A DNA stretch of 64,000 nt from an archaeon. GTDB taxonomy: Archaea; Iainarchaeota; Iainarchaeia; Iainarchaeales; JANQMZ01. The notes under the pieces were generated by a model, which did no database searches, was not told the origin of the DNA, and saw nothing but the letters and a program-made list of their open reading frames with translations. The stretch is taken from the NCBI GenBank assembly GCA_028279805.1, contig JANQMZ010000007.1, forward strand, positions 214,399 through 278,398. Reading direction: 5' to 3'. Within the stretch, counting starts at the first letter, position 1. Each line of letters starts with the position of its first letter. Position numbers and translations under genes: made by a program. Shown piece after piece: positions 1,383 to 54,403 of the stretch.

Positions 1383-1853
1383 ATGCCAAAAAAAATGCCA
1401 CATGAAACGCCTCGAGAAAAAGGCAACCAAAAACATTCGGGAAGACCCGGAGAGAGAAGTGCAAATGTTTCTGAGGAGTTAAAAAGAATAACCGGGGAAT
1501 TGGAAAACACAGATCCTTATGCCAGAGAAAAAGCCAAAGCCGACCTTATACACTTAAGAGGCCCGGAAGTTGCACAGGAACTAATAAGAGCATTAAATCA
1601 TCCTAATCCAGAGGTCAGAATTGAAATTGTCAGAAAACTTGGAGTTATGGAAGACCCGCAAACAGTAAACGCATTAGCAAGAATACTAGAAGAAGATTCT
1701 GATGTCAGAGTCAGAGCTGCAGCTATCGGAACACTTGGAAACATCGGAGGCCCTGAAGCAGTATCAGCGCTGGAAAAAGCACAAAATGATTCCAACCGCC
1801 AAATCAGGGAAGAAGCTGGCTGGACACTTGGACAAGCAAAAAGAAAACAATAA
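1383..1853 (+). CDS. HEAT/PBS-lyase-type repeat protein
   Basis: Tandem approx 30 aa repeats ...NPEVRIEIVRKLG...DSDVRVRAAAIGTLGNIGGPEAV...NRQIREEAGWTLGQ typical of HEAT_2/PBS lyase repeats. Confidence 0.55.
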   Translation: MPKKMPHETPREKGNQKHSGRPGERSANVSEELKRITGELENTDPYAREKAKADLIHLRGPEVAQELIRALNHPNPEVRIEIVRKLGVMEDPQTVNALARILEEDSDVRVRAAAIGTLGNIGGPEAVSALEKAQNDSNRQIREEAGWTLGQAKRKQ

Positions 1854-1877
1854 AAAAAATAAAAAATTTCGAGAAAG

Positions 1878-1886
1878 CTTTATAAA
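1878..1886 (+). promoter_or_regulatory. candidate rRNA operon promoter TATA box (ctttataaa); a second candidate aaaattaaat lies at 2056-2065
   Basis: Archaeal TATA consensus TTTAWATA-like sequences in the AT-rich leader upstream of the 16S processing stem. Confidence 0.25.
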
Positions 1887-2100
1887 CCTCGTTAAATACT
1901 ATTAGTAGGGGCTGAGGAAATAACTGAGAGACTTTTACCCTCTTTTCAATTGAAAAGAAAAAGGTGAAAATCTCATCTATTTACCCATTTTTAGCCAAAT
2001 TTTAGGTTTAAAGCTCCGCATCAAAAAAATAATTGAAAAATTTTTTCAGATGCATAAAATTAAATGAGCACTTTCGCTTTTGAAAGTGTGATGTATAACA

Positions 2101-2128
2101 CCTGTGAACATGGGAAATTCGTACAGCT
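2101..2128 (+). other. 16S rRNA processing stem, 5' strand (pairs with 3677-3704)
   Basis: cctgtgaacatgggaaattcgtacagct is reverse-complementary to agctgtacgaacccaaaaagttcacagg downstream of 16S; typical archaeal bulge-helix-bulge-type pre-rRNA stem. Confidence 0.7.
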
Positions 2129-2177
2129 AAGCTGAACAAATTAACCCATAAGTGCAAACAATTCTATTAGTACCCAA

Positions 2178-4139: not shown

Positions 4140-4193
4140 CATTGGTAGGCAAATTGGTCTATTAATTAGTCATTAATTCAGCGAGTACAAGAG
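4140..4193 (+). other. 23S rRNA processing stem, 5' strand (pairs with approx 7154-7215)
   Basis: gcattggtaggcaaattggtctat...gtacaagag complementary to ctcttgtac...ggtagaccaagcctacaaccaatgc after 23S. Confidence 0.6.
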
Positions 4194-7810: not shown

Positions 7811-8133
7811 GTAAGGTAGTGAAAGGGCAGTTAAGGAATTCTCTGAATTCTTAGGAAAGTCCACCCACTCGTTAAAAATCTCGCAAGAGAAATTCTCGAA
7901 AGGGAGTCCATTGGAACAGAAACGAACTCAGGCAAACTTTGACAATGATAAAAAATTGAGTTGTTTGTTTTTGGGATGAAACGGCTGATGGTTTGAGTGC
8001 AAGTCATTGAGACGCTTAGACGAATGCTGCCAAGATGTGCTTTGTCAAAAAAGCAGGAATCAACAACAGAATGATTCTCGGTTTTTGAAACCGTATCCTA
8101 ACAGAAGGTGGCTTACTCTTCACTGCCTTACAT
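7811..8133 (+). ncRNA. rnpB: RNase P RNA (archaeal type)
   Basis: ORF-free 400 bp gap; CR-I motif AGGAAAGTCC at 7851-7860; CR-V motif ACAGAAGGTGGCTTAC at 8101-8116 with P4 covariation (GTCCACC/GGTGGC); terminal P1 pairing gtaaggtagtgaa / ttcactgccttac; upstream TATA ctttttatac approx 25 nt before 5' end; followed by T-run. Confidence 0.75.
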
Positions 8134-33130: not shown

Positions 33131-35362
33131 TTAAGTGCAAGGAGCTGCAGCAGAATCATCAGCTGCTGTTGTATCTTCCGCAATGTAAAAAGTTACATTT
33201 ACATCCAAAGATGTTGTATCCGGTTCATCATCCGGAACAAGAATTGCAATTCCAACATTAATTTTATCATTAGTTGAATCAAGCTGTTCACAAATCTGGC
33301 CTGAATTTCTGCCCAGACCAACAATGTTAAAATCAGTCCAGCCTGTCTGAGCAAAACCACCTTCACAGGAACTAGCCACATTGTTATCTGAAATAAACCT
33401 GAAATAATTCCTGTCAGAACCTCCGCTTGTACCATTCCAGGATAATTGTTGTGCACAAGTGCTGACATCAATATCAACATTTCCGGTATTGGTAATCAAA
33501 AAAGGAGTGTCACTATCTCCATTTTCATCAGAAGCACCGTTGTTTAAAGTAAAAGTCATGGGGCTGTTTGTAACATCAATTGTAACAGTTGAAGCAACTG
33601 CCTGGGTTGTAATTGTTCTGTCAGTTCCCAAGGACGTGTTAGCATCAGCTTTTGTTCCGTTTCCAGAAAATCTTAACTCATAAGCTTGAGCTGTTGTAGT
33701 GCTGTTCACATCCCATTTAGGAGTATAACTTTGATTATAAGCCAAATGGGTTGACTGAGGATTTGCGCCTGAAGTAATATACAAAGGGCTTGTGTTAACG
33801 GTATTCATGTCCCAAAAGTCTGTACATCCCGCGCCAACACAATACTGTAAAGTTGTGTCAACAACTCCACAATTAGCATCATTGCATGTTACTGTTCCTT
33901 CAACCAAAAATTCTTCACTCACATTAATTGTAGTGTTCGCATCAGACGGAGGAGAAGTAATATTAAAACTTAAATTTCCATCCTTTTCAGTGTAAGAAAC
34001 ATTAATGTCAATATTATCCCAAAATGACCTTAAGCCTGTTGGAAAAGAAGTTGGATTTGCAACAGCATAAACACCAAAATCAACATGGTTAATGTCAGCA
34101 GATGTCCAGGTTGTTCCCCACAAATCATTTGTTGCCCCAACAGTTTCACGAATCGGAGTTGTGCTTGCAATACTTGCAGTTGACTTTGTATCACCGGTTG
34201 CTGTTCCCGCTTTAACCAGCTGCAAATCTGTTTGCCAAGTGTTTCCTGTCTGAGTATGCCTTTCAACTCTAACTTCAATTCCGTTAATTTGAGCTCCTAC
34301 AGGAACATCAAAATCAAAATCATCATAAGTTGCTTCTCCTGCAATAGCAACATACCTGTTGGTTGTATTAACATCATCAGAAGTCCACGCATTGTTTGGG
34401 TTATCAACACCGTCGCTTGAAGCTGTTGCAGTCGGATCCTTAAAGCTTCCCGGTTCAGACAATGTTAAAGTTCTGTCTGTTCCCGAAGAATTTCCGGTAT
34501 TTGCCTTTGTTCCGCTTGCCTGTACCCTTAATTCATATGATTGGGCAGTAAAACTTGATTCAACAACCCAGCTTTGAGTAAAACTTTGATTATAACCCAA
34601 ATGCTGGCTCTGAGGATTGTTACCAGAGGATAAAAACAAAGGAGCCGAAGCATCAGAATTCATATCCCAAAAATCAGTGCAACCAGAACCGACACAGTAT
34701 TGTAAATTTGCATCAACAACTCCACAATTAGCATCATCACACGTTACTGACCCTTCAACCAAAAACAAGCTGTTTGTATCAATTGTTGTATTGGCATCAG
34801 CTGACGGAGTAGTAATGCTTGCAGTAAAATTCCCATCATTCTCAGTATAAGAAACACTAATATCAACATCATCCCAGTTCGCAGGATCTCCACTAATAGG
34901 AGCAGTTCTTACTAAACCAACACCAAAGTCTGCGCTGTTAATATCTGCAACGGTTAAAGTTGTTCCCCACATATCCGTGGTTGACCCGGCTGTCTGAGTC
35001 ACATCACTGGTAGAATTAGTTTGAAAGGAACTGGAATCTGTGTTTCCAATAAGTCCTGTGCTATCTCTTAACTGTGCAGTAGTGGTTATGGTTGAAAACC
35101 CTGTAACTTTCCATTCAAGCCTAACCCTGATTCCGTTAATTGTTGCACCAATTGGAATATCAAAACCGAAAGTGTCATAATGACCGGTTTGACCCAAACC
35201 ACAAGTTGTTCTTGAATCATCGGAAGCCCAGGCATTATCAGGACTGGAACAAGTTCCCGAATGAGTTGCTGTCGGATCAGTAAAAGCTGTGTCAGTTGCA
35301 AAAACAAGCAATGCTGAAAATATTAATAAGAATAAAACCATTAACCCCGAAGCATTTTTCAT
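33131..35362 (-). CDS. large secreted Thr/Ser/Asn/Asp/Gly-rich surface protein with two approx 285 aa tandem repeats
   Basis: 743 aa; signal peptide; repeated blocks DPTAT...NAW(A/T)SDD...INGI(R/E)VR... and VTC(D/N)DANCGVVD..LQYCVG(S/A)GCTDFWDMN...; Cys pairs. Confidence 0.6.
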   Translation of the reverse strand: MKNASGLMVLFLLIFSALLVFATDTAFTDPTATHSGTCSSPDNAWASDDSRTTCGLGQTGHYDTFGFDIPIGATINGIRVRLEWKVTGFSTITTTAQLRDSTGLIGNTDSSSFQTNSTSDVTQTAGSTTDMWGTTLTVADINSADFGVGLVRTAPISGDPANWDDVDISVSYTENDGNFTASITTPSADANTTIDTNSLFLVEGSVTCDDANCGVVDANLQYCVGSGCTDFWDMNSDASAPLFLSSGNNPQSQHLGYNQSFTQSWVVESSFTAQSYELRVQASGTKANTGNSSGTDRTLTLSEPGSFKDPTATASSDGVDNPNNAWTSDDVNTTNRYVAIAGEATYDDFDFDVPVGAQINGIEVRVERHTQTGNTWQTDLQLVKAGTATGDTKSTASIASTTPIRETVGATNDLWGTTWTSADINHVDFGVYAVANPTSFPTGLRSFWDNIDINVSYTEKDGNLSFNITSPPSDANTTINVSEEFLVEGTVTCNDANCGVVDTTLQYCVGAGCTDFWDMNTVNTSPLYITSGANPQSTHLAYNQSYTPKWDVNSTTTAQAYELRFSGNGTKADANTSLGTDRTITTQAVASTVTIDVTNSPMTFTLNNGASDENGDSDTPFLITNTGNVDIDVSTCAQQLSWNGTSGGSDRNYFRFISDNNVASSCEGGFAQTGWTDFNIVGLGRNSGQICEQLDSTNDKINVGIAILVPDDEPDTTSLDVNVTFYIAEDTTAADDSAAAPCT
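33605..35290. repeat. internal tandem duplication (period approx 855 bp) inside the surface-protein gene
   Basis: Homologous plus-strand shadow ORFs at 33792-33995 and 34617-34850 end 855 nt apart; protein repeats align. Confidence 0.6.
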
Positions 35363-36388: not shown

Positions 36389-36462
36389 AAAATGAAATAA
36401 CTTACAAAACATTTTTAAGTCCCAGTGAAACTGGGACGTTCGCAGCCGGAACACCGGCTAAG

Positions 36463-36546
36463 CGCAGGGGACGAGATTTGAACTCGCGCGTTCCGAAGAA
36501 CACAAGCTTTCCAGGCTTGCGCGTTAAACCACTCCGCCACCCCTGC
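36463..36546 (-). tRNA. tRNA-Ser (anticodon GGA), long variable arm
   Basis: GCAGGGGTGGCGGAGTGGTTTAACGCGCAAGCCTGGAAAGCTTGTGTTCTTCGGAACGCGCGAGTTCAAATCTCGTCCCCTGCG. Confidence 0.85.
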
Positions 36547-36568
36547 AAACCGATTGCATAATTGATTT

Positions 36569-36599
36569 TATGTGCTATCTTTAAATAGCATCTGAAGCG
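36569..36599 (+). promoter_or_regulatory. second copy of palindromic TATA-containing element (tatgtgctatctttaaatagcatctgaagcg), 42 nt upstream of tRNA-Ser(GGA) on the opposite strand
   Basis: 29/31 identical to 3772-3802; TATA tttaaata. Confidence 0.45.
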
Positions 36600-36682
36600 T
36601 TCCGTCCGGACGCAACCGCGCTCTCAAGAGCGCAAGTGCTATCGCAGATAGCACGCGGATTGTCCCTACGCAATGGGACAAG

Positions 36683-36766
36683 CGCAGAGAGAGAGATTCG
36701 AACTCCCGCGTTCCGAAGAACACCAGGTCTCAAGCCTGGCGCGTTAAACCACTCCGCCATCTCTGC
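36683..36766 (-). tRNA. tRNA-Ser (anticodon TGA), long variable arm
   Basis: GCAGAGATGGCGGAGTGGTTTAACGCGCCAGGCTTGAGACCTGGTGTTCTTCGGAACGCGGGAGTTCGAATCTCTCTCTCTGCG. Confidence 0.85.
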
Positions 36767-36933
36767 ATCGCCTGTGTTCAGGCGGCAAACTTGCTGCTTT
36801 CAGCAGCAAATCCGAAGCTTTGCTTCGGAAGTCCCAATGCAATTGGGACGTTCTCACGCGGAACACCGCGTAAATGGACAATTATTGCCCTAATGCTTAC
36901 CAATTAAAGAATTTAAGTGTTTTAAATACTTCT

Positions 36934-38046
36934 ATGAAAAAGGATTTTCTTGTTTTAGAGGATAAACTGGAGCGAATTACTGATGAACTGGATACTGATT
37001 TGTCAAAATATATTACTCCGGTTAATGCTATAAGTGAAGAGAAAAAGTTTTTTGAAGCATTGGAAAAAGGCGAGGAATATAATCCTGTTTTTGAATATTT
37101 GCCAAAAAACCCGCTTTATTCTCATTTGAAAATGAGCCCTGAATATAAGGAAAAATTAACAGAATTAACTTTGATTCAGACAGGGGAAAAAGGTGTGTCA
37201 AAATTGTTAGGTAAAAAAAAACAGGATTTGATTAAAAAAATGGAATTTATCAGAATGATTGGAACTGAAAAGTTCGGGGAACAATCAGTCGAATTTTTTG
37301 GAAAGCCAAGCAAAAAACTTGTAAAAGATTCAATTAAAGAATTGAAAAAAAAAGTTAAACCGGATGAAAAAAACATTTCAGCTGAAAAAATGGTTTCAGA
37401 ATTAAAAAATTTTTTAAAAAAGAAAAAAATTAAGTTTAATGTTTTAATTGAGGAAAAAATGTCAGCAGATGCAGCTGTTTTAAATTCTGTTCACGAATTA
37501 AGAATCAGAAAAGATGCAATGTTTTCAGAATTGGATGTTAAAAGATTAGAAATTCATGAAATTGAAACACATATTTACAGGCATTTGAATGGTCACAGGC
37601 AACCGTATAAACTTTTTTTAACAGGCACTGACAGAAACTGGTTGATTACAGAGGAAGGGTTGGCTGTTGCAAATGAAAAACTGTTTAATTGTTGCAGTTC
37701 TGCCAGGTTAAAAAAATATGCAGGCAGGGTTTTGTCCGTTCATAAAAGTCTGAATAATTCTTTTTATGATGTTTTTAAATATTTGGAAAAATTTTTTGAA
37801 CCGGAACAGGCTTTTAGAATTGCTTTGCGTTCAAAAAGAGGAACTTGTATTACTGAAAATCCGGGAGGTTATACAAAAGATTATTTTTATTCAGAAGGAA
37901 TTAAAAGAATTAATAAATTTTTAAAAAAAGGAAACATTGAAGACTTGTATTATGGTAAAATTTCAATTGAAGATATTAATGAATTTAAATCAATTCCCGA
38001 ACTTGTTAAACCAAAATATTTACCTGATTACAAAAAGGTTTTGTAA
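36934..38046 (+). CDS. DUF1704-family protein (MATCAP-like putative metallopeptidase; HExxxH + EEGLA motifs)
   Basis: HEIETH (HExxxH) followed approx 30 aa later by ITEEGLAV (QEGLA-like); start moved to Met 36934 because 36874-36933 overlaps hairpin array. Confidence 0.5.
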   Translation: MKKDFLVLEDKLERITDELDTDLSKYITPVNAISEEKKFFEALEKGEEYNPVFEYLPKNPLYSHLKMSPEYKEKLTELTLIQTGEKGVSKLLGKKKQDLIKKMEFIRMIGTEKFGEQSVEFFGKPSKKLVKDSIKELKKKVKPDEKNISAEKMVSELKNFLKKKKIKFNVLIEEKMSADAAVLNSVHELRIRKDAMFSELDVKRLEIHEIETHIYRHLNGHRQPYKLFLTGTDRNWLITEEGLAVANEKLFNCCSSARLKKYAGRVLSVHKSLNNSFYDVFKYLEKFFEPEQAFRIALRSKRGTCITENPGGYTKDYFYSEGIKRINKFLKKGNIEDLYYGKISIEDINEFKSIPELVKPKYLPDYKKVL

Positions 38047-41098: not shown

Positions 41099-41125
41099 TT
41101 GCGGTAGGGCGTTCTAACACAATCT

Positions 41126-41148
41126 TATTGATAACGATTATCAATAAC
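41126..41148. promoter_or_regulatory. Fur-box-like perfect inverted repeat TTATTGATAA-cga-TTATCAATAA
   Basis: 10-bp arms, 3-bp spacer, 12 nt upstream of fur start; resembles the GATAATGATAATCATTATC class. Confidence 0.55.
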
Positions 41149-41159
41149 TTTATAAAGTA

Positions 41160-41576
41160 TTGTCAATAAAAATTGAAGAGAAGGTAGTTTTCGTGGAAGA
41201 AAGAAAAACAAAACAAAAAAATGCGCTTAACAAAATATCAAAAAAACTAGGAAAATTTTTTTCAGCAGAAGAATTGCATAATAAATGCGAAACAGAGGGA
41301 CAGAACATAGGAATAGCCACCATATACCGGTTCCTGAAAAAAGAGGCTGAAAACGAAAACCTAAATGTGTTTGAATGCGAGGGTAAAAAAATATACTCAC
41401 GTTCAGAAAATGAGCACAGCCATTTCACTTGCACAAACTGCCATAAAAAAGTGCATCTGAAAACCCCTATGAAAATATTTAAGGAATTAAAAAAGCAAGC
41501 AAATTTCACGTTGGAAGCATTTCAGATAGAAATTGCGGGATTGTGTGAAAATTGCATTTCAAAACAAGCACAATAA
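41160..41576 (+). CDS. fur: Fur-family metalloregulator (Fur/Zur/PerR)
   Basis: 138 aa; winged-helix GIATIYRFL; metal site HSHFTCTNCHKK...CENC. Confidence 0.75.
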   Translation: MSIKIEEKVVFVEERKTKQKNALNKISKKLGKFFSAEELHNKCETEGQNIGIATIYRFLKKEAENENLNVFECEGKKIYSRSENEHSHFTCTNCHKKVHLKTPMKIFKELKKQANFTLEAFQIEIAGLCENCISKQAQ

Positions 41577-41641
41577 GCACAATCCTGGGTAAAACAACAA
41601 ATTAGATTTAACAAAATTAAACAAACAGGGAGGTAGTACAA

Positions 41642-41899
41642 ATGGAAAAGAAATTGTATATAGGAAACGTGGATTATCAAACCACAAAAGACCAATTAGG
41701 AGATGCGTTCTCTGAATTTGGTGAAATAAGGGACATATTCATCCCTACTGACAGGGAAACAGGAAAATCACGAGGATTCGCATTCCTGACTTTTAGCGAA
41801 GAGGAAGACGCAGATAAAGCAATTCAGGCAATGAACGGTAAAAAATTCAACGGAAGAGAACTCTCAGTTTCCGAAGCACGACCAATGAACAGAAGATAA
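41642..41899 (+). CDS. RRM-domain RNA-binding protein
   Basis: 85 aa; RNP-2 LYIGNV and RNP-1 RGFAFLTF. Confidence 0.8.
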   Translation: MEKKLYIGNVDYQTTKDQLGDAFSEFGEIRDIFIPTDRETGKSRGFAFLTFSEEEDADKAIQAMNGKKFNGRELSVSEARPMNRR

Positions 41900-41966
41900 C
41901 AAAAGCAAGAAAAAATGGCCTCTTTTGGAGAGCATAAAAAACCAAATACGTTATGAGGAGAGGTAA

Positions 41967-43622
41967 TTGGAAGATAAAAAAAAGAAACGACGTGCACTTT
42001 TAGGAGATAAAGAAATAAAGCTAATTGGCAATAGACCAAAAGAAATGCAACAGATAAAAGGAAAATTTGCAATACCTGCTGCAAGAAATACCAAAAAATC
42101 TCTCAGGTTAAAAGGTCTTTCAAATGGCACTCTGATTCTTTCAACACTACCAAACATCGGAAAACATGCATGCGTAAGACAAATACTGGATGTTGAAGAG
42201 AAAAGTGAAAAAATACTCGGAAAAAAAATTCCAATTTATCATGTTTCCTCAGACGAACCTGAAAAATGGGGGGAAGTCACCGAGATTCACCCTAATGTTA
42301 AAGCAAAAGGATATTCAATTTACAAAATGAATAATGAAGAAAAAAAAGAATTTCTCAATAATTTTGGAGTCGAAGTTGAAAACAACCAAAGAATAGCACA
42401 CGGACTATTCGGAATAAAAAATGGAAAAATAATGACTTCTCTTATTCCAACAATCCAAATGGGAAACCCGGATGTGAATCGCTTTCTAAAAAAATTCCAA
42501 AGTAAAATTGAACAAAGAAATCACGCAGACATAATTATTGTCGGGGCGGGAGCAGCAGGAATCGGTATGGGAGTGCTTTTGCAAAAAATCGGAATCGATT
42601 TTATTATTCTTGAAAAAAAATCAATAGGAGAATCATTCAAAAAATGGCCAAAAGAAATGCAGTTCATTTCCCCCTCGTTTACAGGAAATTTTTTTGGAAT
42701 GCCAGACCTTAATGCAATAACACCTGAAACTTCGCCCGCATACAACTTTCTAACAGAACACCCTTCAGGAAAACAATACGCTAAATACTTAAAAGGGGTT
42801 GCAAACTATTATGAACTTCCAATTTTTACAGGAGTAGAAGTCAAATCAATTACAAAGAAAAAAGAAAATTTCCTAATAAAAACCAAAGACAACGAACTTC
42901 ACTCTAAATTTGTTATTTGGGCTGGAGGAGAATACCAATATCCAAATGATAATCCTTTTCCAGGCGCACAGTATTGCATACATAATTCAAAAATAAATAA
43001 TTGGAGCAAGTTCTATAATGGAGAATATCTTGTTATTGGCGCCTATGAATCGGGAATAGACGCTGCTTATCAGCTTGCAAAAAAAGGAATGAAAGTGGTT
43101 GTTCTTGATTCAGGGAATGAAATGACTAATGTTCAAAGCGATTCAAGCTATTCATTATCCCCTTTCACAAGGGAACGATATTTAGAACAAAAAGCAAGCA
43201 TAAAAATCGTTCCAAACGCAAAGGTAAAAGAAATTCAGCAAAAAAATGGCAAGTTCATAGCAGTAACTGAAGATGGAAGAACATTCAAAACAAAAACAAA
43301 ACCAATTCTTGCAACAGGTTTTAAATCAAGTCTTTCTTTAATTGGCGAATTATTTTCAAGAGAACAAGGAGTTGTTCAACTAACTGAGAATGACGAGTCA
43401 AAAAAAACCAAAGGATTATTCCTTGCCGGGCCACAGGTTCGACATAAAGATGCAATTTTTTGTTTCATATACAAATTCCGGCAAAGATTCGCTGTTATTG
43501 CAGAAAACATTGCAAAAAGATTGGGAAAAACAAACAATGCAAAAAAGATTATTGAAGAATATAAAAATCAAAATTTTTATCTGAAAGATTTAAGCTGCTG
43601 CGGAGATGACTGCCCATGCTGA
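41967..43622 (+). CDS. FAD/NAD(P)-binding oxidoreductase (flavin monooxygenase / pyridine-nucleotide-disulfide family) with approx 180 aa basic N-terminal extension
   Basis: Rossmann ADIIIVGAGAAGIGMG and second dinucleotide fold EYLVIGAYESGIDAAYQLAKKG; C-terminal CCGDDCPC. Confidence 0.5.
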   Translation: MEDKKKKRRALLGDKEIKLIGNRPKEMQQIKGKFAIPAARNTKKSLRLKGLSNGTLILSTLPNIGKHACVRQILDVEEKSEKILGKKIPIYHVSSDEPEKWGEVTEIHPNVKAKGYSIYKMNNEEKKEFLNNFGVEVENNQRIAHGLFGIKNGKIMTSLIPTIQMGNPDVNRFLKKFQSKIEQRNHADIIIVGAGAAGIGMGVLLQKIGIDFIILEKKSIGESFKKWPKEMQFISPSFTGNFFGMPDLNAITPETSPAYNFLTEHPSGKQYAKYLKGVANYYELPIFTGVEVKSITKKKENFLIKTKDNELHSKFVIWAGGEYQYPNDNPFPGAQYCIHNSKINNWSKFYNGEYLVIGAYESGIDAAYQLAKKGMKVVVLDSGNEMTNVQSDSSYSLSPFTRERYLEQKASIKIVPNAKVKEIQQKNGKFIAVTEDGRTFKTKTKPILATGFKSSLSLIGELFSREQGVVQLTENDESKKTKGLFLAGPQVRHKDAIFCFIYKFRQRFAVIAENIAKRLGKTNNAKKIIEEYKNQNFYLKDLSCCGDDCPC

Positions 43623-44590
43623 ACTTGCTTTCCCTGCTTAAAACTTACAGACCAACAGCAATATTTCTAATCTCAATTATTTTCGGATCACTACTGGGAA
43701 TATTTTCAAAAGAATCGGGATTACTGCTTGGAAGCTACTTGGACCATATTATACTTGCACTTGTATTTTTTATTTTTCTCGAAGTTCCTTTTGAAAACAT
43801 CCTAAAAGGAATTAAAAATATTAAATTCATAAGCGTTGCATGGGCAACAAACTTTATCCTTATCCCCATAATCGGATTTGTAATTGCATCTTTATTCCTG
43901 CAGGAAGCCCCATTATTTTTAATCGGGCTTTTCATATACTTCATGGCACCTTGCACTGACTGGTTTTTAGCTTTCACTAAAATCGCAAAAGGAGATACAG
44001 GATTAGGATCTGTTCTTCTGCCAATAAACATGATTACTCAATTACTACTCTATCCAGTTTACCTGTTTATTTTTGTAGGTTCAACACTAGAAACAAACAT
44101 ATCAACAATTTCCAATACTCTCCTTAATTGGTTTTTACTACCATTTGCCACAGCAACCATACTACGCCTGGTTTTAAGAAAACTTACCAAAGAGAACACA
44201 AAAGAAAAGATTGCAAACGCTACAACCTTTATTACAGAAGGAATTCTTGCAATTCTTATAATATCAATATTCGCCACGAACATTGCCAAAATATTAAATC
44301 ATTTGGAAATGCTTACACTAGTCTTAGCAGCGGTTTTCACATTCTTTGTAATAATTTATATAATAACCGAAAAAATATCCCGCCATCTTCATTTTTCACA
44401 TCCAATGCACGTACTATATACTATGACAACTTCCGCGCGAAACTCCCCATTAATGTTAGGTATAACTATTGCTGCATTCCCTCAACAACCACTCATATAC
44501 GCAGCACTCATCATAGGAATGCTTGTCGAATTTCCCTATTTAGCAATTGTTTCAGCAGTTCTTCAAAAACCAAATAAAAAACCATTTTAA
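43616..44590 (+). CDS. ACR3/BASS-superfamily permease (arsenite-efflux-like)
   Basis: 324 aa, approx 10 TM; resemblance to ACR3 around LVFFIFLEVPFENILKG...VAWATNFILIPIIGFVIASLFL. Confidence 0.45.
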   Translation: MLNLLSLLKTYRPTAIFLISIIFGSLLGIFSKESGLLLGSYLDHIILALVFFIFLEVPFENILKGIKNIKFISVAWATNFILIPIIGFVIASLFLQEAPLFLIGLFIYFMAPCTDWFLAFTKIAKGDTGLGSVLLPINMITQLLLYPVYLFIFVGSTLETNISTISNTLLNWFLLPFATATILRLVLRKLTKENTKEKIANATTFITEGILAILIISIFATNIAKILNHLEMLTLVLAAVFTFFVIIYIITEKISRHLHFSHPMHVLYTMTTSARNSPLMLGITIAAFPQQPLIYAALIIGMLVEFPYLAIVSAVLQKPNKKPF

Positions 44591-44668
44591 ACCCACTGAT
44601 ATTTAGGTAAAAAAACAAGGTTTTCTTATAATAACGTTCACAATGAAATCAAATGGAAACAATTTTTT

Positions 44669-45052
44669 TCATGGAATGAGAAGTTTTGCGTATTCAATTT
44701 TTTTGTTTTTTTGAAATTTTTTAAGCATTTTTTTTATTTCCTGTGACTGGCCGTTTATGACAAACATTTCAAGACATTTTCCGTTTGATAAATGATTATG
44801 AATTTGGGTTCTGATTAAAGAATTGAATTCGTGTCTTATTTTTGATATTTCTTCCGGTTTGTCCCTGTGGGTTACAAAAATTACTGCGTCTGAAAAACCT
44901 GTGAGCTCTGCTTTGTTTTTGTATTCATCCACGAGCAAATTAAGAGCTGCTCGAATTGTTTCGCTTCTCCCTGAAAACTCAAACTCGTTTTCCATTTTGT
45001 TTACTTGTTCAAGCAAATCTTTTCCCAAGGACATGCTGATTATTTCTGCCAT
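44669..45052 (-). CDS. nikR: NikR-type nickel-responsive regulator (RHH + ACT-like metal-binding domain)
   Basis: 127 aa; N-terminal ribbon-helix-helix ISMSLGKDLLEQV...SRSETIRAAL; C-terminal VIFVTHRD...HEF...HNHLSNGKC His/Cys cluster. Confidence 0.7.
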   Translation of the reverse strand: MAEIISMSLGKDLLEQVNKMENEFEFSGRSETIRAALNLLVDEYKNKAELTGFSDAVIFVTHRDKPEEISKIRHEFNSLIRTQIHNHLSNGKCLEMFVINGQSQEIKKMLKKFQKNKKIEYAKLLIP

Positions 45053-45060
45053 GAAATCAC

Positions 45061-45122
45061 GTTAATAACAAATTAAAAAAACACTAAAAATATTATTAAC
45101 AAATAAGTTTAAAATTATTAAC
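45061..45122. promoter_or_regulatory. candidate metalloregulator operators in nikR-znuA divergent promoter: GTTAATAA-N24-TTATTAAC plus a third TTATTAAC 22 nt downstream
   Basis: Inverted/direct repeats seen directly; third copy overlaps znuA TATA (gtttaaaatt) region. Confidence 0.35.
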
Positions 45123-45153
45123 TATGGTTTTTTCCTACAGGTGATTCTTTTTT

Positions 45154-46095
45154 ATGTTAAAAATTTCAAGTGTTTTATTAGTTTTTTTAATAATTATTTC
45201 CGGGTGTACAACCCAGCCTGTTGAAAATGAAGGATTGCAGGCAGTTGCAGGCTTTTATCCGTTTTATGACATAGCCAGAAATGTAGGCGGGGAAAAAGCA
45301 GATGTTTCTGTTTTGGTTCCTCCTGCAACCGAGCCGCATGCTTTTGAACCCACTCCTGGCGATATTTTGAGACTAAACCGGGCAGATTTGTTTATTGGCA
45401 CCGGTGTTGATTTTGAGGAATGGGAAGATAACATTGTAGCAGGTCTTGACCCAAACGTCAGACTGGTAAAAGCAAACAAAGGAGTAGAACTTTTGAAAGC
45501 AGAAGAAGATGAACATCATGAAGAACATGAAGAAGAAATACATGAGGAAGAAGAGGAAGAACACCACCATCATGATCATGGCGAATTTGACCCGCATTAT
45601 TGGGTTTCTCCTAAAAATGCAGTCAAAATCACAAACACAATAAAAGAATCTTTTATGGAAGCAGATTCAGAAAATGCTGCTTATTATGAAAGCCAGGCTG
45701 ACAAATTTATTTCAGAACTTGAAGCTTTGGATAATGAGTATACAACAAGACTTAATAACTGCAAACAGGACAGAGTTTTAACAACTCATGCTGCCTTTGC
45801 ATATCTTGGCAACGATTATGGTTTTATACAAATACCAATTTTGGGTTTGAGTCCTGAATCAGAGCCGACTCCTGGGGAAATTGCAGGACTGGTTGAAGAA
45901 GCAAAAGAACATGAACTAAAATATGTTTTCTTTGAAGAGCTTGTTGATCCACGGGTTGCTGAAACAATTGCCTCGGAAACAGGAACTGAAACACTTGTAT
46001 TAAATCCTGTTGCAGGTTCAAAAAAAGACGAAGGTTATTTAAGAATCATGAGAAACAATCTTGATAATCTTGAAAAGGCATTAGAATGTCAATGA
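45154..46095 (+). CDS. znuA: metal ABC transporter substrate-binding lipoprotein (ZnuA/TroA family) with His-rich loop
   Basis: 313 aa; lipobox IIISGCTT; loop EDEHHEEHEEEIHEEEEEEHHHHDHGEFDPHYW. Confidence 0.8.
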   Translation: MLKISSVLLVFLIIISGCTTQPVENEGLQAVAGFYPFYDIARNVGGEKADVSVLVPPATEPHAFEPTPGDILRLNRADLFIGTGVDFEEWEDNIVAGLDPNVRLVKANKGVELLKAEEDEHHEEHEEEIHEEEEEEHHHHDHGEFDPHYWVSPKNAVKITNTIKESFMEADSENAAYYESQADKFISELEALDNEYTTRLNNCKQDRVLTTHAAFAYLGNDYGFIQIPILGLSPESEPTPGEIAGLVEEAKEHELKYVFFEELVDPRVAETIASETGTETLVLNPVAGSKKDEGYLRIMRNNLDNLEKALECQ

Positions 46096-46790
46096 ATTCA
46101 ATAAAAGTTGAAAGCGTTTCTTTCCGATATTCAAAAGAATCAGTTATTGAAAATCTTTCTTTTGAAATGAAGAAAGGTGATTTTGTAGGGATTTTAGGAC
46201 CTAATGGATCGGGAAAGACAACGCTGATAAGACTGCTTCTTGGTTTCCTGAAACCTGAAAAAGGAAAAATAAGCATTTTTGGAAAAAATGTTTTCAAGGC
46301 AAGAGAACTTATCGGATATGTTCCACAGAAGCTTGACATTGACAGGAGTTTTCCGGGAACTGTAAGGGAGATGCTTGAACTGGTCAAAAGCAAAAGCGGG
46401 AATGAAATAATTAATCTTATGGAAATTAACCAGCTTTTTGATCAAAAATTTGTTGAACTGTCTGGAGGGCAACAACAAAGGGTTATTACTGCAATGTCTC
46501 TTCTTAAAGAGCCTGAAATACTTATTCTTGACGAGCCTTCTTCCGGAATTGATGTGAAAGGGCAAACAAAATTTAACGATTTGTTAAGCAGGCTGAATGC
46601 AGAGAAAGGAGTTACAGTATTATTAATATCTCATGATGTAAACCTGGTTTCAAAATATGCTAAAAAAGCGCTTTGTGTGAATAAAGGTCATTATTGTTTT
46701 GGTGCAACAAAAGAATTGCCAAAATTTATCAAAGAAACTTTTGGGAAAGACTATAAATTTTATCCGCATTACCATGGTGATTCTCATTGA
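46086..46790 (+). CDS. znuC: metal ABC transporter ATPase
   Basis: Walker A GPNGSGKTT, signature LSGGQQQRV, Walker B LILDEPSSGID. Confidence 0.85.
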   Translation: MSMNSIKVESVSFRYSKESVIENLSFEMKKGDFVGILGPNGSGKTTLIRLLLGFLKPEKGKISIFGKNVFKARELIGYVPQKLDIDRSFPGTVREMLELVKSKSGNEIINLMEINQLFDQKFVELSGGQQQRVITAMSLLKEPEILILDEPSSGIDVKGQTKFNDLLSRLNAEKGVTVLLISHDVNLVSKYAKKALCVNKGHYCFGATKELPKFIKETFGKDYKFYPHYHGDSH

Positions 46791-47581
46791 TTGAAATGTT
46801 CCAATATGCCTTTGTGCAAAAAGCATTTATTGCAGGAATACTGGTTTCAATAACAACCGCTTTGCTTGGAGTAATTCTGGTTCAGAAAAAATTATCCTTG
46901 CTTGGAGACGGATTGTCTCATGCAGCATTCGGCGGAATGGCAATAGGTCTTCTTTTCAACATTAATCCTTTGTTAAGTGCTTTGACCGTTGCAATTATTG
47001 CCTCAATTGGTATTGAAAAAATACTTGACAAAATAAAGTCACAGGGAGACGCAGCAATAGCAGTAATTTTGTCAACAGGAATGGCTATTGCAATTACAAT
47101 CATAGGATTAATCAGGGGATTTAATGTAAATCTTTTTAGTTTTCTTTTTGGAAGTATTCTTTCAATTAACAATTTTGATTTAATGCTTTTAATAGTTTTA
47201 TCCGTGCTTGTAATTGGAACAATTTTAATATTCAGAAAACAAATCTTATTTTTAATTCTGAACAAAGAACTTGCAGAGCTAAATGGAGTGGACACAAAAA
47301 AAATAAATTACACGATAATGATTTTATCGGCACTAACAGTAATTTTGGCAGTGCGTGCTGTTGGAATATTGCTTGTAACCGGAGTGATTGTAATGCCAGC
47401 ATTGGCAGCCCTGCAAATCTCAAAATCTTTTTCTGACACTTACAAAAAAACAATTGCAATCAGCTTGTTTGGAATGGTTGGCGGAATAATGCTGGCAATA
47501 TTGTTTGACCTTCCTCCAAGCGGCATAATCATACTGACAATGACAGCCATCTTGCTAATAACATTTTTTTTGAAAAAATAA
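46787..47581 (+). CDS. znuB: metal ABC transporter permease (ABC-3 family)
   Basis: 264 aa, 8-9 TM, operon with znuA/znuC. Confidence 0.8.
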   Translation: MIEMFQYAFVQKAFIAGILVSITTALLGVILVQKKLSLLGDGLSHAAFGGMAIGLLFNINPLLSALTVAIIASIGIEKILDKIKSQGDAAIAVILSTGMAIAITIIGLIRGFNVNLFSFLFGSILSINNFDLMLLIVLSVLVIGTILIFRKQILFLILNKELAELNGVDTKKINYTIMILSALTVILAVRAVGILLVTGVIVMPALAALQISKSFSDTYKKTIAISLFGMVGGIMLAILFDLPPSGIIILTMTAILLITFFLKK

Positions 47582-47652
47582 GGCTATTGTCACACTTTTA
47601 AGCCTATTACGTGGGAATAATTTAAATAGTAGAAAAACATACTTTTAGCATT

Positions 47653-48000
47653 ATGAAGGGGTTTAAAGGCATTTTAGTATTATTTGCTTTGATTTTTTTG
47701 CTTGGATTTGTTTCAGCTGAAGCACAGGAAAATTCAATAATGGGATTAATAACAGGTTTCATGAGCGGTTTCAGTTCAAATGAAATCGTTGAACAGATTA
47801 GTGATTCGTTGCCGGAAGAGTTAGAAGAATTTGGTCCGGGAGATGACGGAGTTATGACGGGACCGGGTGACGATGGTAAAATGGTTAAAGGGCCTGGCGA
47901 TGACGGAAAAATGGAACAGGTTTCTGTTTCAAATCCTGTTGATGCTGTTACTCAAACAATTGGAAATATTTTAAGCGGAATTTTCGGATTTTTTGGCTGA
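47653..48000 (+). CDS. small secreted protein with GPGDDG(x)M tandem repeats
   Basis: 115 aa; signal peptide ILVLFALIFLLGFVSAEA; repeats GPGDDGVMT/GPGDDGKMVK/GPGDDGKME. Confidence 0.45.
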   Translation: MKGFKGILVLFALIFLLGFVSAEAQENSIMGLITGFMSGFSSNEIVEQISDSLPEELEEFGPGDDGVMTGPGDDGKMVKGPGDDGKMEQVSVSNPVDAVTQTIGNILSGIFGFFG

Positions 48001-49397: not shown

Positions 49398-49808
49398 TTA
49401 AATTTTAACATTTTCAATTTTTGTTTCTTTTGGATTTTTTTGGTGTCTGGCTAATCCTGTTTGTAAAACAATTATTCCAAGCAAAGCACATTTTGAACGG
49501 GCTTTAGCTGTTTCACCAATAATGTCATAAATGTCCTGTGCTTTTAAATTTAAAATTTCTTCAATTGTTTTTCCTTTAACAATTTCAGTTAAAAGTGACG
49601 CTGAAGCCAAACTTAAAGAACAGCCGTGGCCTTCAAACTTAATATCTTCAACTTTGTTGTTTTTTAATTTTAAAGTATAAGTAACACTGTCACCGCATGA
49701 CCTGTTTCCACCGCCAAATTCCAGGTCAGCCGGATCAATTTTTCCTTTGTTTAAAGGATTTTTATAAGCTTTCAAAATTGTTTCATTGTAAAGTTCTTTT
49801 GCTTCCAT
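49398..49808 (-). CDS. sufU: SufU/IscU-type Fe-S cluster scaffold/sulfur acceptor
   Basis: 136 aa; NRSCGDS...GHGCSLSLASA motifs. Confidence 0.75.
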   Translation of the reverse strand: MEAKELYNETILKAYKNPLNKGKIDPADLEFGGGNRSCGDSVTYTLKLKNNKVEDIKFEGHGCSLSLASASLLTEIVKGKTIEEILNLKAQDIYDIIGETAKARSKCALLGIIVLQTGLARHQKNPKETKIENVKI

Positions 49809-51092
49809 TCAAACACCAAAAATTTTAACAGCATCGTTCAAAGCATCAATCAGAACATCAATTTCTTTTTCAGTATTGTAAATGTAAAAACTTGCCCTCA
49901 CAGTATGTTCAACACCCAAAGCATGCAACAAAGGATGAGTACAATGAGCTCCTGCTCTGACCGCAATTCCATGAGTGTCCAAAACAGAAGCAACGTCATG
50001 AGGGTGAATGTCAGCAATATTAAATGATATAACACCTGCCCTTTTATCGGTTTTAGGGCCGTATAATTGAATTCCTTTAACATCTTTTAATGCGTTTAAA
50101 GCATATTCAACCAGTTTATGTTCATGTTTTAGAATTTTATCCATTCCAATTTTGTTCAGATAATCAACTGCTGCACCTATTCCGATTCCTCCTGCAACAT
50201 GAGGCGTTCCGGCTTCAAATTTCCATGGCAACATGTTCCATTCGGTTTTTTCAACTGAAACCGAGCTAATCATTTCACCGCCAAACAAAAAAGGATTCAT
50301 TTCTTCAAAAGCTTCTTTTTTTCCGAATAATCCGCCTGTTCCCGTTGGTGCCAGCATTTTATGACCGGAAAAAGCAAAAAAATCACAATTCAAATCTTTA
50401 ACATCAATTTCCATATGAGGAATGCTTTGAGCCCCATCAACAATAGCCAGAGCATTTTTGTCATGAGCTTTTTCAATTAATTCTTTAACCGGATTAATTG
50501 TTCCCAAAGTGTTTGAAACATGAATAACTGAAACAATTTTTGTTTTATTGGTAAGCAAAGAATCAAAACTTTGCATGTCCAGTTCTCCGTCTTTGGTTAT
50601 GTCAACATATTTTACCTTAAATCCTAATTTTTTTCCCAAATATTGCCATGGAACAAAATTTGCATGGTGTTCCATTTTTGTAATTAACACTTCATCATCT
50701 TTTTTCAAATCCAATCCAAGAGAATAAGCCAAAATATTTAATGATTCTGTTGTGTTTTTTGTAAAAACAATTTCATCCCATTCACTGTTAATAAAGTTTC
50801 CAACTTTTTCATGAGCTTTTTCATAAGCTTCGGAAGCCTCCTCACTTAAAGCATGCAATCCACGATGAACATTTGCATTATAATTTGAATAAAAATCATT
50901 TACTGAATCAATAACCTGTTTTGGTTTTTGTGTTGTGGCAGCATTGTCAAAATAAACCAATGGCTTATCATGCACTTTTCTTTCAAGAATTGGAAAATCT
51001 TTTCTAATGCTTTCAATGTTCATATTTTCACAAAAAACAAGGTTATTTGACGTTAAAATCTTTTTCCCATTTTTTTTGAATCCTTTTAACAA
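49809..51092 (-). CDS. sufS: cysteine desulfurase SufS (start likely Met 51023)
   Basis: PLP-Lys SGHKMLAPTG; active-site RAGAHCTHPL. Confidence 0.88.
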   Translation of the reverse strand: MLKGFKKNGKKILTSNNLVFCENMNIESIRKDFPILERKVHDKPLVYFDNAATTQKPKQVIDSVNDFYSNYNANVHRGLHALSEEASEAYEKAHEKVGNFINSEWDEIVFTKNTTESLNILAYSLGLDLKKDDEVLITKMEHHANFVPWQYLGKKLGFKVKYVDITKDGELDMQSFDSLLTNKTKIVSVIHVSNTLGTINPVKELIEKAHDKNALAIVDGAQSIPHMEIDVKDLNCDFFAFSGHKMLAPTGTGGLFGKKEAFEEMNPFLFGGEMISSVSVEKTEWNMLPWKFEAGTPHVAGGIGIGAAVDYLNKIGMDKILKHEHKLVEYALNALKDVKGIQLYGPKTDKRAGVISFNIADIHPHDVASVLDTHGIAVRAGAHCTHPLLHALGVEHTVRASFYIYNTEKEIDVLIDALNDAVKIFGV

Positions 51093-52233
51093 TCATTTCA
51101 CTGGCTTCTGAGTCCAATTCTGTTAAAAGTTCCTTAAAAAATGAAAACATAAGCATTTTTCTGGCGCCCCGTTCATCAAATCCTCTTGACCGCAAATAAA
51201 ACATTTTATCTTCATCAACCTGAGCAACAGTTGCTGCATGAGTTGCCTTAACATCATCTGCTTCAATTTCAAGGCCGGGAATGGCTACAAGCTTTGATTC
51301 AGGGCTTAAAAGCATTCCATGAGCTTCTAACAAGCCGTCAGTTCTTTGGGCTTTTGGCAAAACTTTTATCATTCCGTCAAAACTTGTTCTTGCTTTATCA
51401 GCCAAAACTCCTTTTAAAACAGTAAAACTTTTGGCATCAGGAACTGAATGCAATGAAAGCAAGTCAAAGTTTAATTTTTGTTCTTTTGCAAACAAAACCA
51501 AATCATATTGCTTATAATTAGAACCTTGTTTTACTAAATTGTTTATCTGAGAAAAATTCATTAATTCAACGTCAGCAAAAACATTAAACAATAATAATTC
51601 TGAATCTTTTTCAATTAAAGAATTGTTAAAAACAAAACCATTGTTTAATTTGTCATAAATTGTTGCTAAGCTTATTTTTGATTCATTTTTAATATTTGTT
51701 GTTGTGCTTAAAGCAAAATCTTTTTCTGAAGAAATATTCTGAATAATTGTTAAACCCTGAATTTGCGGTTCAGCAAAATATAAATTTTTTGCAATACAAC
51801 CATTTTCAAAAACTAAATTTAAATGTAAAAAAGAATCTGGTTTTGCAGATTTTATGTAAACAAAATAACCTGAATTAAAAAAAGCATTTGGAAAAGCCTG
51901 AAACTGGTTTTTTGGTTTTTGTTCATTGTTTAATAAAGACAAAATTTTGTCTTTGTGTTTTTCAAACGCTTTTTCAAATGGCAAAATTTCAAATTCAACA
52001 TTTTTTTGTTCAATTATTTCAATTTTTGGTTTTTGTTTTGAATTGGCTTGAAGAATTGTTTGAATTTTTGTTTCATAATCCGGAACGTCAAAAGAAACAC
52101 TTTTTTTTAACGGTTTTTTTTCAAACAATTCCAGATTTGTTTTTTTATAATTTTTAATTTGATTTTCAAGTTCGGAAAAAGTTAAAGTCATTTTATCACC
52201 TTTAACCAATGCTGCCTTCCATTTCCAGTTCAA
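51043..52233 (-). CDS. sufD: Fe-S cluster assembly protein SufD (start likely Met 52191)
   Basis: C-terminal [22 protein letters not shown] (SufB/D family). Confidence 0.8.
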
Positions 52234-53620
52234 TTAACCTGTTTAATTCGGCTGCATATTCCATCGGCAAAGATTTAACGAATGGCTGAATAAAACCTAA
52301 AACAATTAATGTTAAGGCCTGTGATTCTGTCAAGCCTCGTGACATTAAATAGAATAATTGGTCTTCACCGATTTTTCCAACTGTTGCTTCATGAGTCAAA
52401 GAAGCGGTCGGATTGTCAACCTTAATTGTTGGATAAGTGTCACTGCGGGATTTGTCATCAATCAGTAAAGCGTCGCAAACCACGTTTGCTTTGCAGTTTT
52501 TGGCATTTTTGGCAATCTGCAAAATTCCCCTGTAAGAAGACCTGCCTCCTTCTTTGCTTATGCTTTTGCTTGTAATGTTGCTTGTTGTATTTGGAGCTAA
52601 GTGAACTGCTTTTGCTCCTGCATCCTGTGATTGTCCTTTTCCTGCCAGTGCAATGCTTAAAATTTCAGCTTTGGCTCCCTGTCCAAGCATGTAAACAGCC
52701 GGATATTTCATTGTAACCTTGCTTCCTAAATTTCCGTCAACCCATTCAACTGTTGCATTTTCATAAGCAAACGCCCTTTTTGTAACCAGATTATAAACAT
52801 TTGAAGACCAGTTCTGAATTGTTGTATAACGAACTTTGGAGTTTGGCAAAGCAACAACTTCAACAACAGCTGAATGCAATGAATCAGCAGTATAAACCGG
52901 TGCAGTACAACCTTCAATGTAATGAATTTTGCTTCCTGGTTCCGCGACAATTAAAGTTCTTTCAAACTGGCCGATTCGTTCAGCATTAATTCTGAAATAA
53001 GCTTGTAATGGAATGTCTGATTGAACATTTTTCGGAACATAAACAAAGCTGCCGCCAGACCAGACAGCAGTATTCAACGCTGCAAACTTGTTGTCATTGT
53101 GTGGAATGATTTTTGTAAAATATTTTTTTACAATTTCAGGAAATTGTTTTAAGCCTTCATCCATGCTTAAAAAAATTATGCCTTTTTCTTCCAATTCTTT
53201 TCTTAAATTGTGGTATACGACCTCAGAATCAAATTGTGCTCCGACTCCTGCTAAAAATTCTCTTTCAGCTTCCGGAATTCCAAGCCTTTCAAACGTGTTT
53301 TTAATTTCTTCAGGAACATCGTCCCATGATTTTGAATCAGTTGCTTTTGGTTTCATGTAATAAATAATGTCATCAAAATTAATTTTGCTTAAATCGGCAC
53401 CCCATTTTGGCATTGCCATTTTTTTAAATGCTTTAAAAGCCTTTAATCTTAAATCAAGCATCCATTTTGGTTCATTTTTAATTTTGGAAATGGCTGCAAC
53501 TGTTTTTTCACTTAAGCCTTTTTCTAAAATTAAATCATAAGCAGCATCAACAGAAAAATCGTATTTGCTATAATCTGTTATAGCAGCTGCTTTTTCCTGT
53601 TTTGTAAGGGTTTTAGGCAT
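52202..53620 (-). CDS. sufB: Fe-S cluster assembly protein SufB
   Basis: 472 aa; C-terminal [26 protein letters not shown]. Confidence 0.9.
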
Positions 53621-54403
53621 TTACAATAACTCCTCGTTTTTGATTTCAATGCCTTGTTCTGCTAAAAATTTAACATAGCCTTTTTCGTCTAATTCATCTG
53701 CAAGTTTTTTGTCGCCTGAAGCAACAATTTTTCCGTCAACCAAAACATGAACAAAATCAGGTTTTAAATGATTTAAAATTCGCACATAATGAGTTATAAC
53801 CAAAGCCCCAAATTCTCCACCTCTAACAGAGTTAACTGCGTCGGAAACAAATTTTAAAGAATCAATGTCCAGGCCTGAATCGGTTTCATCGAGGATAGCC
53901 ATTTTGGATTTTAATGTCAGCATTTGTAAAATTTCAGCACGTTTTTTTTCTCCTCCTGAAAAACCAACATTTAAATCACGCTGAGGCAAATCTTCTTTCA
54001 AACCCAGTTCTTTTGATTTTTCTTTTATTAATTTTTTAAATTCCATTAAAGTTTGCTCAGTTTTAGGATGCAATGATTTGTTTGCTTCCTGTAAAAAAGT
54101 GTTAAAAGGCAAACCCTCAACTTCCATTGGATACTGAAAAGACAAAAACAATCCAAGTTTTGCTCTTTCATCAGGCTCCAAATCCAGAATGCTTTTATCA
54201 TTGAATAAAATTTCTCCTTTTGTAACTTCATAACGAGGATGACCCATTATTACATTAGCCAAAGTGCTTTTGCCCGAACCATTGGGGCCCATGATTGCAT
54301 GAACCTCCGGAGAACTAATTGTTAAATTAATTCCTTTCAGAATTTTTTTTCCCTCAATTTCAACGTGCAAGTTTTTAATTTCAAGTTTTGTCAAAAAAAT
54401 CAC
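53621..54403 (-). CDS. sufC: Fe-S cluster assembly ATPase SufC
   Basis: Walker A GPNGSGKSTL; ABC signature FSGGEKKRAEI. Confidence 0.9.
   Translation of the reverse strand: MIFLTKLEIKNLHVEIEGKKILKGINLTISSPEVHAIMGPNGSGKSTLANVIMGHPRYEVTKGEILFNDKSILDLEPDERAKLGLFLSFQYPMEVEGLPFNTFLQEANKSLHPKTEQTLMEFKKLIKEKSKELGLKEDLPQRDLNVGFSGGEKKRAEILQMLTLKSKMAILDETDSGLDIDSLKFVSDAVNSVRGGEFGALVITHYVRILNHLKPDFVHVLVDGKIVASGDKKLADELDEKGYVKFLAEQGIEIKNEELL

Follow-up and report, generated by a model that had tools for sequence, protein, structure and literature searches.

The 64,000-nucleotide stretch of DNA analysed here, referred to throughout as the window, encodes an 85-residue protein that is likely to be an RNA-binding protein of the prokaryotic Rbp type, minimal in build and with one canonical RRM; the host is an archaeon with a small genome, probably of the DPANN group. 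The gene is a candidate for a global RNA chaperone or regulator carried on a seemingly laterally acquired block. Its meaning is modest, since the protein brings no new mechanism or fold and is a mildly unusual and divergent representative of an RNA-binding family already known in prokaryotes. A more interesting by-product of the analysis is an archaeal RRM lineage fixed beside an S28e-L24e-NDK gene cluster.

The RRM gene and its product

The initial annotation described an open reading frame of 85 codons with the motifs LYIGNV and RGFAFLTF, and both the frame and the motifs are present exactly as stated. The gene and its elements are as follows.

41629 to 41634, forward strand: Shine-Dalgarno sequence GGAGGT, 7 nt 5' of the ATG of the RRM gene, read from the sequence
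41642 to 41899, forward strand: RRM gene, an open reading frame of 85 amino acids with ATG start and TAA stop; a single domain with no glycine-rich tail
41654 to 41671, forward strand: RNP2 motif LYIGNV, residues 5-10, strand β1, inside the predicted strand 3-8
41771 to 41794, forward strand: RNP1 motif RGFAFLTF, residues 44-51, strand β3, inside the predicted strand 46-51

The GGAGGT element is complementary to the CCTCC of the 16S rRNA 3' end (GGATCACCTCCTTAA, at approximately 3658-3662), this rRNA being encoded in the same window. The protein matches Pfam RRM_1 (PF00076) with an E-value of 1.1e-26 and a score of 92.9 bits, residues 5-74 being aligned to positions 1-69 of the 70-position profile; with a gathering score of 20.7 bits for this family, the match is far above chance level. 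The RNP2 consensus [ILV]-[FY]-[ILV]-x-N-[LV] is satisfied by LYIGNV, with V at the last position where a stricter form of the consensus has L, and the RNP1 consensus [RK]-G-[FY]-[GA]-[FY]-[ILV]-x-[FY] is satisfied by RGFAFLTF. The stacking aromatics Y6, F46 and F48 are intact, and an alignment of 55 homologues shows no variation at G45, F46 or F48.

An AlphaFold2 model computed from the same 55-homologue alignment has a mean pLDDT of 87.2 and the β1α1β2β3α2β4 order of elements, with strands predicted at residues 3-8, 29-33, 46-51 and 75-78 and helices at 16-23 and 54-64. When the predicted structure was compared with the PDB using Foldseek, the top matches were all RRMs, with TM scores of 0.85-0.92, and included tobacco GR-RBP1, CIRBP, RBM39, chloroplast cS22 and bacterial RbpPg1 (7jly); matches to PDB entries by sequence include PABP, hnRNP A1, CIRBP and plant GR-RBP. 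The best NCBIfam match is NF058537 Rbp_regulator, which aligns over positions 2-78 of its 79-position profile with an E-value of 4e-26, and the score of 91.1 bits does not reach the curated cut-off of 100 bits for that model. There is no C-terminal RGG or glycine-rich tail, the protein stopping 4 residues past the domain (…VSEARPMNRR). By profile, motifs and predicted fold, then, the window protein is a member of RRM_1, and these three lines are concordant with the canonical RRM proposed initially. The check for a ferredoxin-like fold that does not bind RNA came out negative, the profile, the motifs and the Foldseek matches all being those of RRMs.

The archaeal host

The organism from which the window derives is an archaeon, as had been claimed. 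Rfam models locate archaeal SSU rRNA (2178-3662), LSU rRNA (4187-7160) and archaeal RNase P RNA (7815-8127), the rRNA genes form an archaeal 16S-tRNAAla-23S operon, and a diphthamide synthase gene and the operon for an A-type ATPase also lie within the window, across the whole of which the GC content is approximately 33%. The exact RRM protein is found on an NCBI contig of 853,278 bp and on an independent Logan contig (SRR20820740), with identical gene order. The best named matches to the guaA gene product encoded beside the RRM locus are from Candidatus Diapherotrites/Iainarchaeum, with identities of only 50-54%, and the host is probably a small-genome, Diapherotrites-like archaeon of the DPANN group, the phylum resting solely on these named guaA matches.

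Several other features of the window were recorded. The guaA gene is fused, with CPR-like relatives. A full-length long RelA/SpoT homologue with HD_4, RelA_SpoT, TGS and ACT domains is encoded on the reverse strand at 15413-17197, and scores 459 bits against TIGR00691, under the cut-off of 499. Long RSH enzymes are typical of bacteria and plastids, and the gene is therefore another candidate for a bacterial-type import. A 45-nt element with two short hairpins occurs at 36417-36461 and again at 36829-36873, the copies being 82% identical and bracketing a tRNA-Ser gene pair (36462-36766). The gene that follows (36874-38046, forward strand) encodes a MATCAP-family protein (PF08014, E=2.7e-55), a family that takes its name from a microtubule-associated tyrosine carboxypeptidase. 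A 743-codon open reading frame on the reverse strand (33131-35362) has a GC fraction of 0.40, above the average, and no Pfam match at E<=1e-5.

Relatives of the window RRM

No homologue of any origin with more than 60% identity to the window RRM was present among 5.8 billion protein clusters, which gives no indication of a recent donor, and the JGI metagenomes held nothing above 53% identity. A scan of GTDB species genomes with the RRM alignment returned bacterial proteins for 79 of the best 80 matches listed (from Acidobacteriota, Verrucomicrobiota, Planctomycetota, CPR and others) and a Woesearchaeota MAG for one; these are the best 80 of at least 600 considered, and the window's own genome is absent among the matches listed. 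A search of 1.84 billion cluster representatives returned 60,834 at E<=1e-3, dominated by multi-RRM eukaryotic proteins and thus uninformative on close relatives.

The nearest relatives by identity lie on archaeal contigs, namely P0002 (60%), P0003-P0006 (57-59%) and P0022 (52%). The genes encoding these proteins are located 30-43 nt 3' of NDK, in S28e-L24e-NDK clusters. Four contigs carry such NDK-linked loci (L002, 89-1399; L144, 132-1430; L143, 293-1306; L142, 2-522), and aEF-1α and an archaeal-type class II aminoacyl-tRNA synthetase of the Asp/Asn type are encoded on the NDK-linked contigs also. The ribosomal proteins eS28 and eL24 are known only from archaea and eukaryotes. These hosts have a GC content of 41-51%, and the SufS protein of L002, the one compared, is just 50% identical to that of the window, so the hosts are not close kin of the window organism. 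A different context, in which an FKBP gene is followed by the RRM gene, is found in the Woesearchaeota contig L052 and the metagenome contig L111. The best bacterial sequences are 55-56% identical to the window protein and come from Aerophobetes and from CPR Adlerbacteria-like contigs with LexA and sortase.

The likeness to bacterial Rbp proteins noted in the initial annotation therefore stands for the family, which is overwhelmingly bacterial on the GTDB matches, and fails for the closest relatives, which are archaeal at 52-60% identity. Similarly, the rarity then ascribed to single-RRM proteins in archaea is weakened, since the NDK-linked copies and that of Woesearchaeota indicate that such proteins recur in uncultured small-genome archaea.

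One of the NDK-linked contigs, L143, also encodes a complete sigma-70-like protein (1766-2665, reverse strand), in which regions 2, 3 and 4 all score over the Pfam cut-offs. The gene is two genes from L24e-NDK-RRM, on a contig of 2.7 kb that is otherwise archaeal-looking, and so either an archaeon has a sigma factor of bacterial type or the contig is chimeric.

A putative insertion between guaA and yjeF

The genes to either side of the RRM gene, and the interval that contains all three, are as follows.

41099 to 48000, no strand assigned: putative inserted block, the guaA–yjeF interval, proposed from a synteny break and from codon usage
41193 to 41576, forward strand: Fur-family regulator, 127 amino acids as called, Pfam FUR (PF01475, E=2.3e-15), with a 65-nt gap to the RRM gene
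41967 to 43622, forward strand: Pyr_redox_3 flavoprotein (YpdA/ArsO-like), Pfam E=7.6e-102, after a 67-nt gap from the RRM gene

The placement of the RRM gene between fur and an FMO-like oxidoreductase gene is thus borne out, with the Fur-family gene 5' and the flavoprotein gene 3'. The Fur-family protein is closest to the NCBIfam PerR models, with E-values of approximately 1e-10 that are far under the cut-offs. The guaA gene ends at 41098 and fur follows, and the block as a whole comprises fur, the RRM gene, the flavoprotein gene, a gene for an SBF/ACR3-like transporter, nikR (reverse strand), znuA, znuC, znuB and orf115. The term metalloregulator island was apt, given that fur, nikR and znuABC surround the RRM gene.

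Comparison with relatives suggests that this 6.9-kb block is an insertion. In relatives L089 and L090, yjeF/Carb_kinase and rpe (both reverse strand) come directly after guaA, and in relative L091 guaA is followed by a few unrelated genes and then by yjeF (reverse strand) and an H+-pyrophosphatase gene. The same backbone genes are present in the window, but 6.9 kb separate guaA from yjeF, and the block fills this space. In the closest relative, L088 (guaA 68% and MscS 64% identical), synteny is kept through guaA and the contig ends 143 nt later in repeats. Neither fur nor the RRM gene was found at the guaA locus in any of the relatives examined, the contig of L088 ending just past guaA. The repeats at the end of that contig (3456-3598) are two copies of an approximately 28-nt unit (GTAGAAATTAAAGCATG..ATTAAAC) with a spacing of approximately 66 nt, and a CRISPR array may begin here, at the site that the fur-RRM block occupies in the window.

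Codon usage was examined also, and both the RRM gene and the fur-to-nikR part of the block proved to be atypical. The synonymous-codon score of the RRM gene is 0.028, compared with 0.283±0.082 for 85-codon windows in other genes, which places it in the lowest 0.5%; in so short a gene taken by itself, such a bias could also stem from high expression, and the window is without ribosomal-protein genes for calibration. The block as a whole has a codon log-likelihood of 0.103, the minimum among 39 equal-sized blocks elsewhere being 0.228. C-ending NNY codons account for 64% in the RRM gene and for 32-45% in fur and the flavoprotein, SBF and nikR genes, compared with 15-26% in the ATPase, aminoacyl-tRNA synthetase, SUF, guaA and pyrophosphatase genes. 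It is the broken guaA–yjeF synteny together with the atypical codon usage from fur to nikR that leads to the proposal of an inserted island. A search for flanking repeats or signs of mobile elements around the block gave only AT-rich low-complexity matches.

The flavoprotein gene and its neighbour merit separate description. The open reading frame encodes 551 amino acids, whereas approximately 120 homologues of about 370 amino acids align only to its C-terminal two-thirds (66%). The additional N-terminal segment of about 180 amino acids (41967-42512) has a weak, sub-cut-off match to AhpC-TSA (E=7e-4) and no PDB sequence match, and may be a fusion or the product of an over-extended start (TTG). 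A cassette of the YpdA/ArsO-like flavoprotein and the SBF/ACR3-like transporter occurs in the window (42513-44590, forward strand), in archaeon L086 (6001-8064) and in bacterium L087 (6001-8125), with 53-65% identity across the three and with genes that overlap or adjoin, and this conservation suggests that the pair is a mobile module for detoxification. The cassette occurs without an RRM gene in both L086 and L087, and its co-transfer with the RRM gene is therefore rejected. Elsewhere in the backbone, a SUF operon (sufC, B, D, S and nifU; 49398-54403, reverse strand) with typical codon usage lies between yjeF and rpe, and since these two genes are adjacent in L089 and L090 the operon may be a second lineage-specific insertion.

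Evolutionary origin of the RRM gene

The phylogeny against bacterial Rbp proteins, proposed initially as a check, did not show a bacterial origin. In a neighbour-joining tree (82 columns, 200 bootstraps) the window protein groups with archaeal sequences with a support of 11/200, which leaves its placement without support, and it is archaeal sequences that are closest by identity. The apparent archaeal clade is itself not clean, because one of its members, L122, has genes for LpxC and DisA and so probably belongs to a bacterium, and another, L111, is not diagnostic. In a profile test the archaeal profile gave the window protein 121.3 bits and the bacterial profile gave it 123.7 bits, a difference of -2.4. 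Archaeal NDK-linked members score +19 to +40 when left out one at a time, and labelled bacterial sequences score between -4 and about -45 (mean -26.9, n=88). The window protein is thus more archaeal-like than 88 of 88 labelled bacterial sequences, yet far from the archaeal members. The archaeal NDK-linked context is missing also, there being no NDK, L24e or S28e gene in the window, where the RRM gene sits between fur and the flavoprotein gene. The scores point to a divergent singleton that leans slightly towards the archaeal sequences.

Direct uptake of the gene in recent times from a bacterium, such as a co-occurring member of the CPR/Patescibacteria or of another Rbp-bearing phylum, would account for the overwhelmingly bacterial membership of the family, for the Adlerbacteria (CPR) and Aerophobetes proteins at 55-56% identity and for the position of the gene inside an inserted, compositionally atypical block, and it would be in keeping with other bacterial-type genes in the genome, for example the long RelA/SpoT gene and the fused guaA with its CPR-like relatives. 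However, homologues in the 5.8 billion clusters and the JGI metagenomes are all at or below 60% identity, the top matches by identity are on archaeal contigs, and the profile test ranks the window protein as more archaeal-like than every labelled bacterial sequence, so that this first alternative must be considered unlikely, if one to be reckoned with.

The preferred account is that the window RRM would be a xenologue, belonging to a family that is mainly bacterial and patchy in uncultured archaea, and that it most likely would have reached its present site by transfer or relocation with, or into, the fur-to-nikR block; direct recent uptake from a bacterium is probably not how it arrived. The horizontal acquisition put forward in the initial annotation therefore survives in part: the block looks inserted and its codons are atypical, but a direct and recent bacterial origin is not indicated, given the lack of any homologue above 60% identity and the unsupported tree.

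Genomic context and the question of metal regulation

The location of the gene raises the possibility that the RRM protein is a dedicated post-transcriptional regulator of metal or oxidative-stress genes, co-transcribed with the PerR/Fur-like gene and the flavoprotein/ACR3-like pair and targeting transporter mRNAs. The fur, RRM and flavoprotein genes lie on the same strand with gaps of 65 and 67 nt and with no terminator-like hairpins between them, and atypical codon usage is common to fur and the RRM, flavoprotein, SBF and nikR genes. A precedent exists in RbpPg1 of Porphyromonas gingivalis, which binds the mRNA of a zinc exporter and affects zinc tolerance (PMC12119571), and which is a close structural match to the window protein also. 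Conversely, the adjacency is unique, with Fur, NikR, ZnuA and the SBF transporter found beside the RRM gene at 0 of 137 other RRM loci, and the flavoprotein–SBF cassette occurs without an RRM gene in archaeon L086 and bacterium L087; the metal context is therefore not a conserved association, and the tie to metal regulation is unsupported. The terminator result carries little weight, because the promoter/terminator scan, which found none between the genes, rests on bacterial rules that fit an archaeon poorly and says little on archaeal transcription. Nor is there conserved RNA structure in the two spacers flanking the RRM gene, for which z-scores of -0.2 and -1.6 are not significant. It is the zinc-exporter binding of RbpPg1 that keeps a metal-linked role alive, at low probability.

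Other contexts recur among the 137 loci. A DEAD-box RNA helicase gene adjoins the RRM gene on the same strand at 12 of them (L009, L016, L023, L031, L038, L045, L069, L079, L080, L111, L122 and L124), drawn from several phyla of bacteria and, in one case, from a contig that is possibly archaeal, an adjacency that fits a common RNA-remodelling or cold-adaptation module. An FKBP isomerase gene is associated with 10 loci and the archaeal ribosomal/NDK cluster with 4. These recurrent contexts fit a general role in RNA metabolism.

Archaeal RRM proteins

The canonical RRM is the commonest RNA-binding domain in eukaryotes and is known from many bacteria. RRMs have generally been treated as bacterial and eukaryotic and as absent from archaea, and eukaryotic RRMs have hence been inferred to be bacterial in origin (PMC9887622). 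A literature search found no descriptions of archaeal RRM proteins, and such proteins already sit in public archaeal MAGs. Taken together, the window locus and the archaeal contigs described above show bona fide RRM proteins in several lineages of uncultured archaea, with no fewer than three different gene contexts.

A further reading would have uncultured small-genome archaea holding a canonical RRM lineage of their own, vertically inherited, with the window protein as a relocated, tail-less offshoot. Several RRMs of the proposed lineage have RGG tails and are fixed in the S28e-L24e-NDK cluster. The chance that this reading is correct is judged to be slim. Were the archaeal lineage nevertheless old, as opposed to a bacterial import, the bacterial origin proposed for eukaryotic RRMs would need rethinking (PMC9887622).

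Expected mode of action

The window RRM would most likely bind single-stranded RNA via the face of its β-sheet. By analogy with bacterial RRM-1 proteins, it would probably serve as an RNA chaperone of general scope or as a regulator acting globally after transcription, plausibly in a stress- or cold-related role. The characterised RRM-1 proteins, among them those of Bacteroides, bind RNA as global regulators and count as cold-shock proteins of a non-canonical kind (PMC11697453, PMC13370968). That the protein has the RRM fold without RNA binding, as a protein-interaction module or an occluded RRM, is highly improbable: a weak match to Pfam RRM_occluded (28.1 bits, cut-off 30), a slightly acidic composition and the lack of the RGG tail seen in archaeal relatives point that way, but RNP1 and RNP2 agree with the consensus for RNA binding and keep the three stacking aromatics, homologues show little or no variation at these positions, and the best structural matches are RNA-binding RRMs.

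Comparison with known systems

Among eukaryotic proteins, the likeness to CIRBP, RBM3 and plant GR-RBP1 is at the level of the domain only. The best matches among solved structures are the glycine-rich or cold-inducible eukaryotic RRMs 4c7q (48% identity, TM 0.88) and 5tbx (41% identity), and the window protein differs from this group in having no RGG tail and in its prokaryotic gene context.

Cyanobacterial Rbp proteins are RRM proteins induced by cold, some of which have a glycine-rich tail and others none, and the tail-less architecture of the window protein resembles that of their short class. The two share a single RRM of about 80 residues, with 46% identity to a Nostoc homologue (L085). 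Unlike the class I cyanobacterial proteins, the window RRM is without a glycine-rich tail, and cyanobacterial proteins are not its closest relatives.

The bacterial RRM-1/Rbp set, which includes RbpA, RbpB and RbpC of Bacteroides, RbpPg1 of P. gingivalis (PDB 7jly) and AB-Elavl of A. baumannii, offers a close parallel. These proteins have approximately 80-100 amino acids, one RRM_1 domain and the same RNP1 and RNP2 motifs as the window protein, for which Rbp_regulator is the best NCBIfam match, and the predicted window fold superimposes on RbpPg1 with a TM score of 0.87 at 38% identity. The role expected of the set is that of a global single-stranded-RNA-binding regulator or chaperone (PMC11697453, PMC13370968, PMC12119571, PMC9313427), and by analogy may extend to the window protein, which differs in its archaeal host, in a score of 91.1 bits where the family cut-off is 100 and in the lack of a C-terminal tail.

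Finally, the NDK-linked RRMs (P0002, P0003-P0006 and P0022) and the FKBP-linked RRMs (L052 and L111) share with the window protein an archaeal host, a single RRM and a domain that ends in VSEARP. Most of these proteins have RGG or glycine-rich tails (P0003-P0006 and L052), whereas the window copy is tail-less, and in place of the fixed ribosomal-protein/NDK context of the NDK-linked genes the window copy resides in a metal-regulator block.
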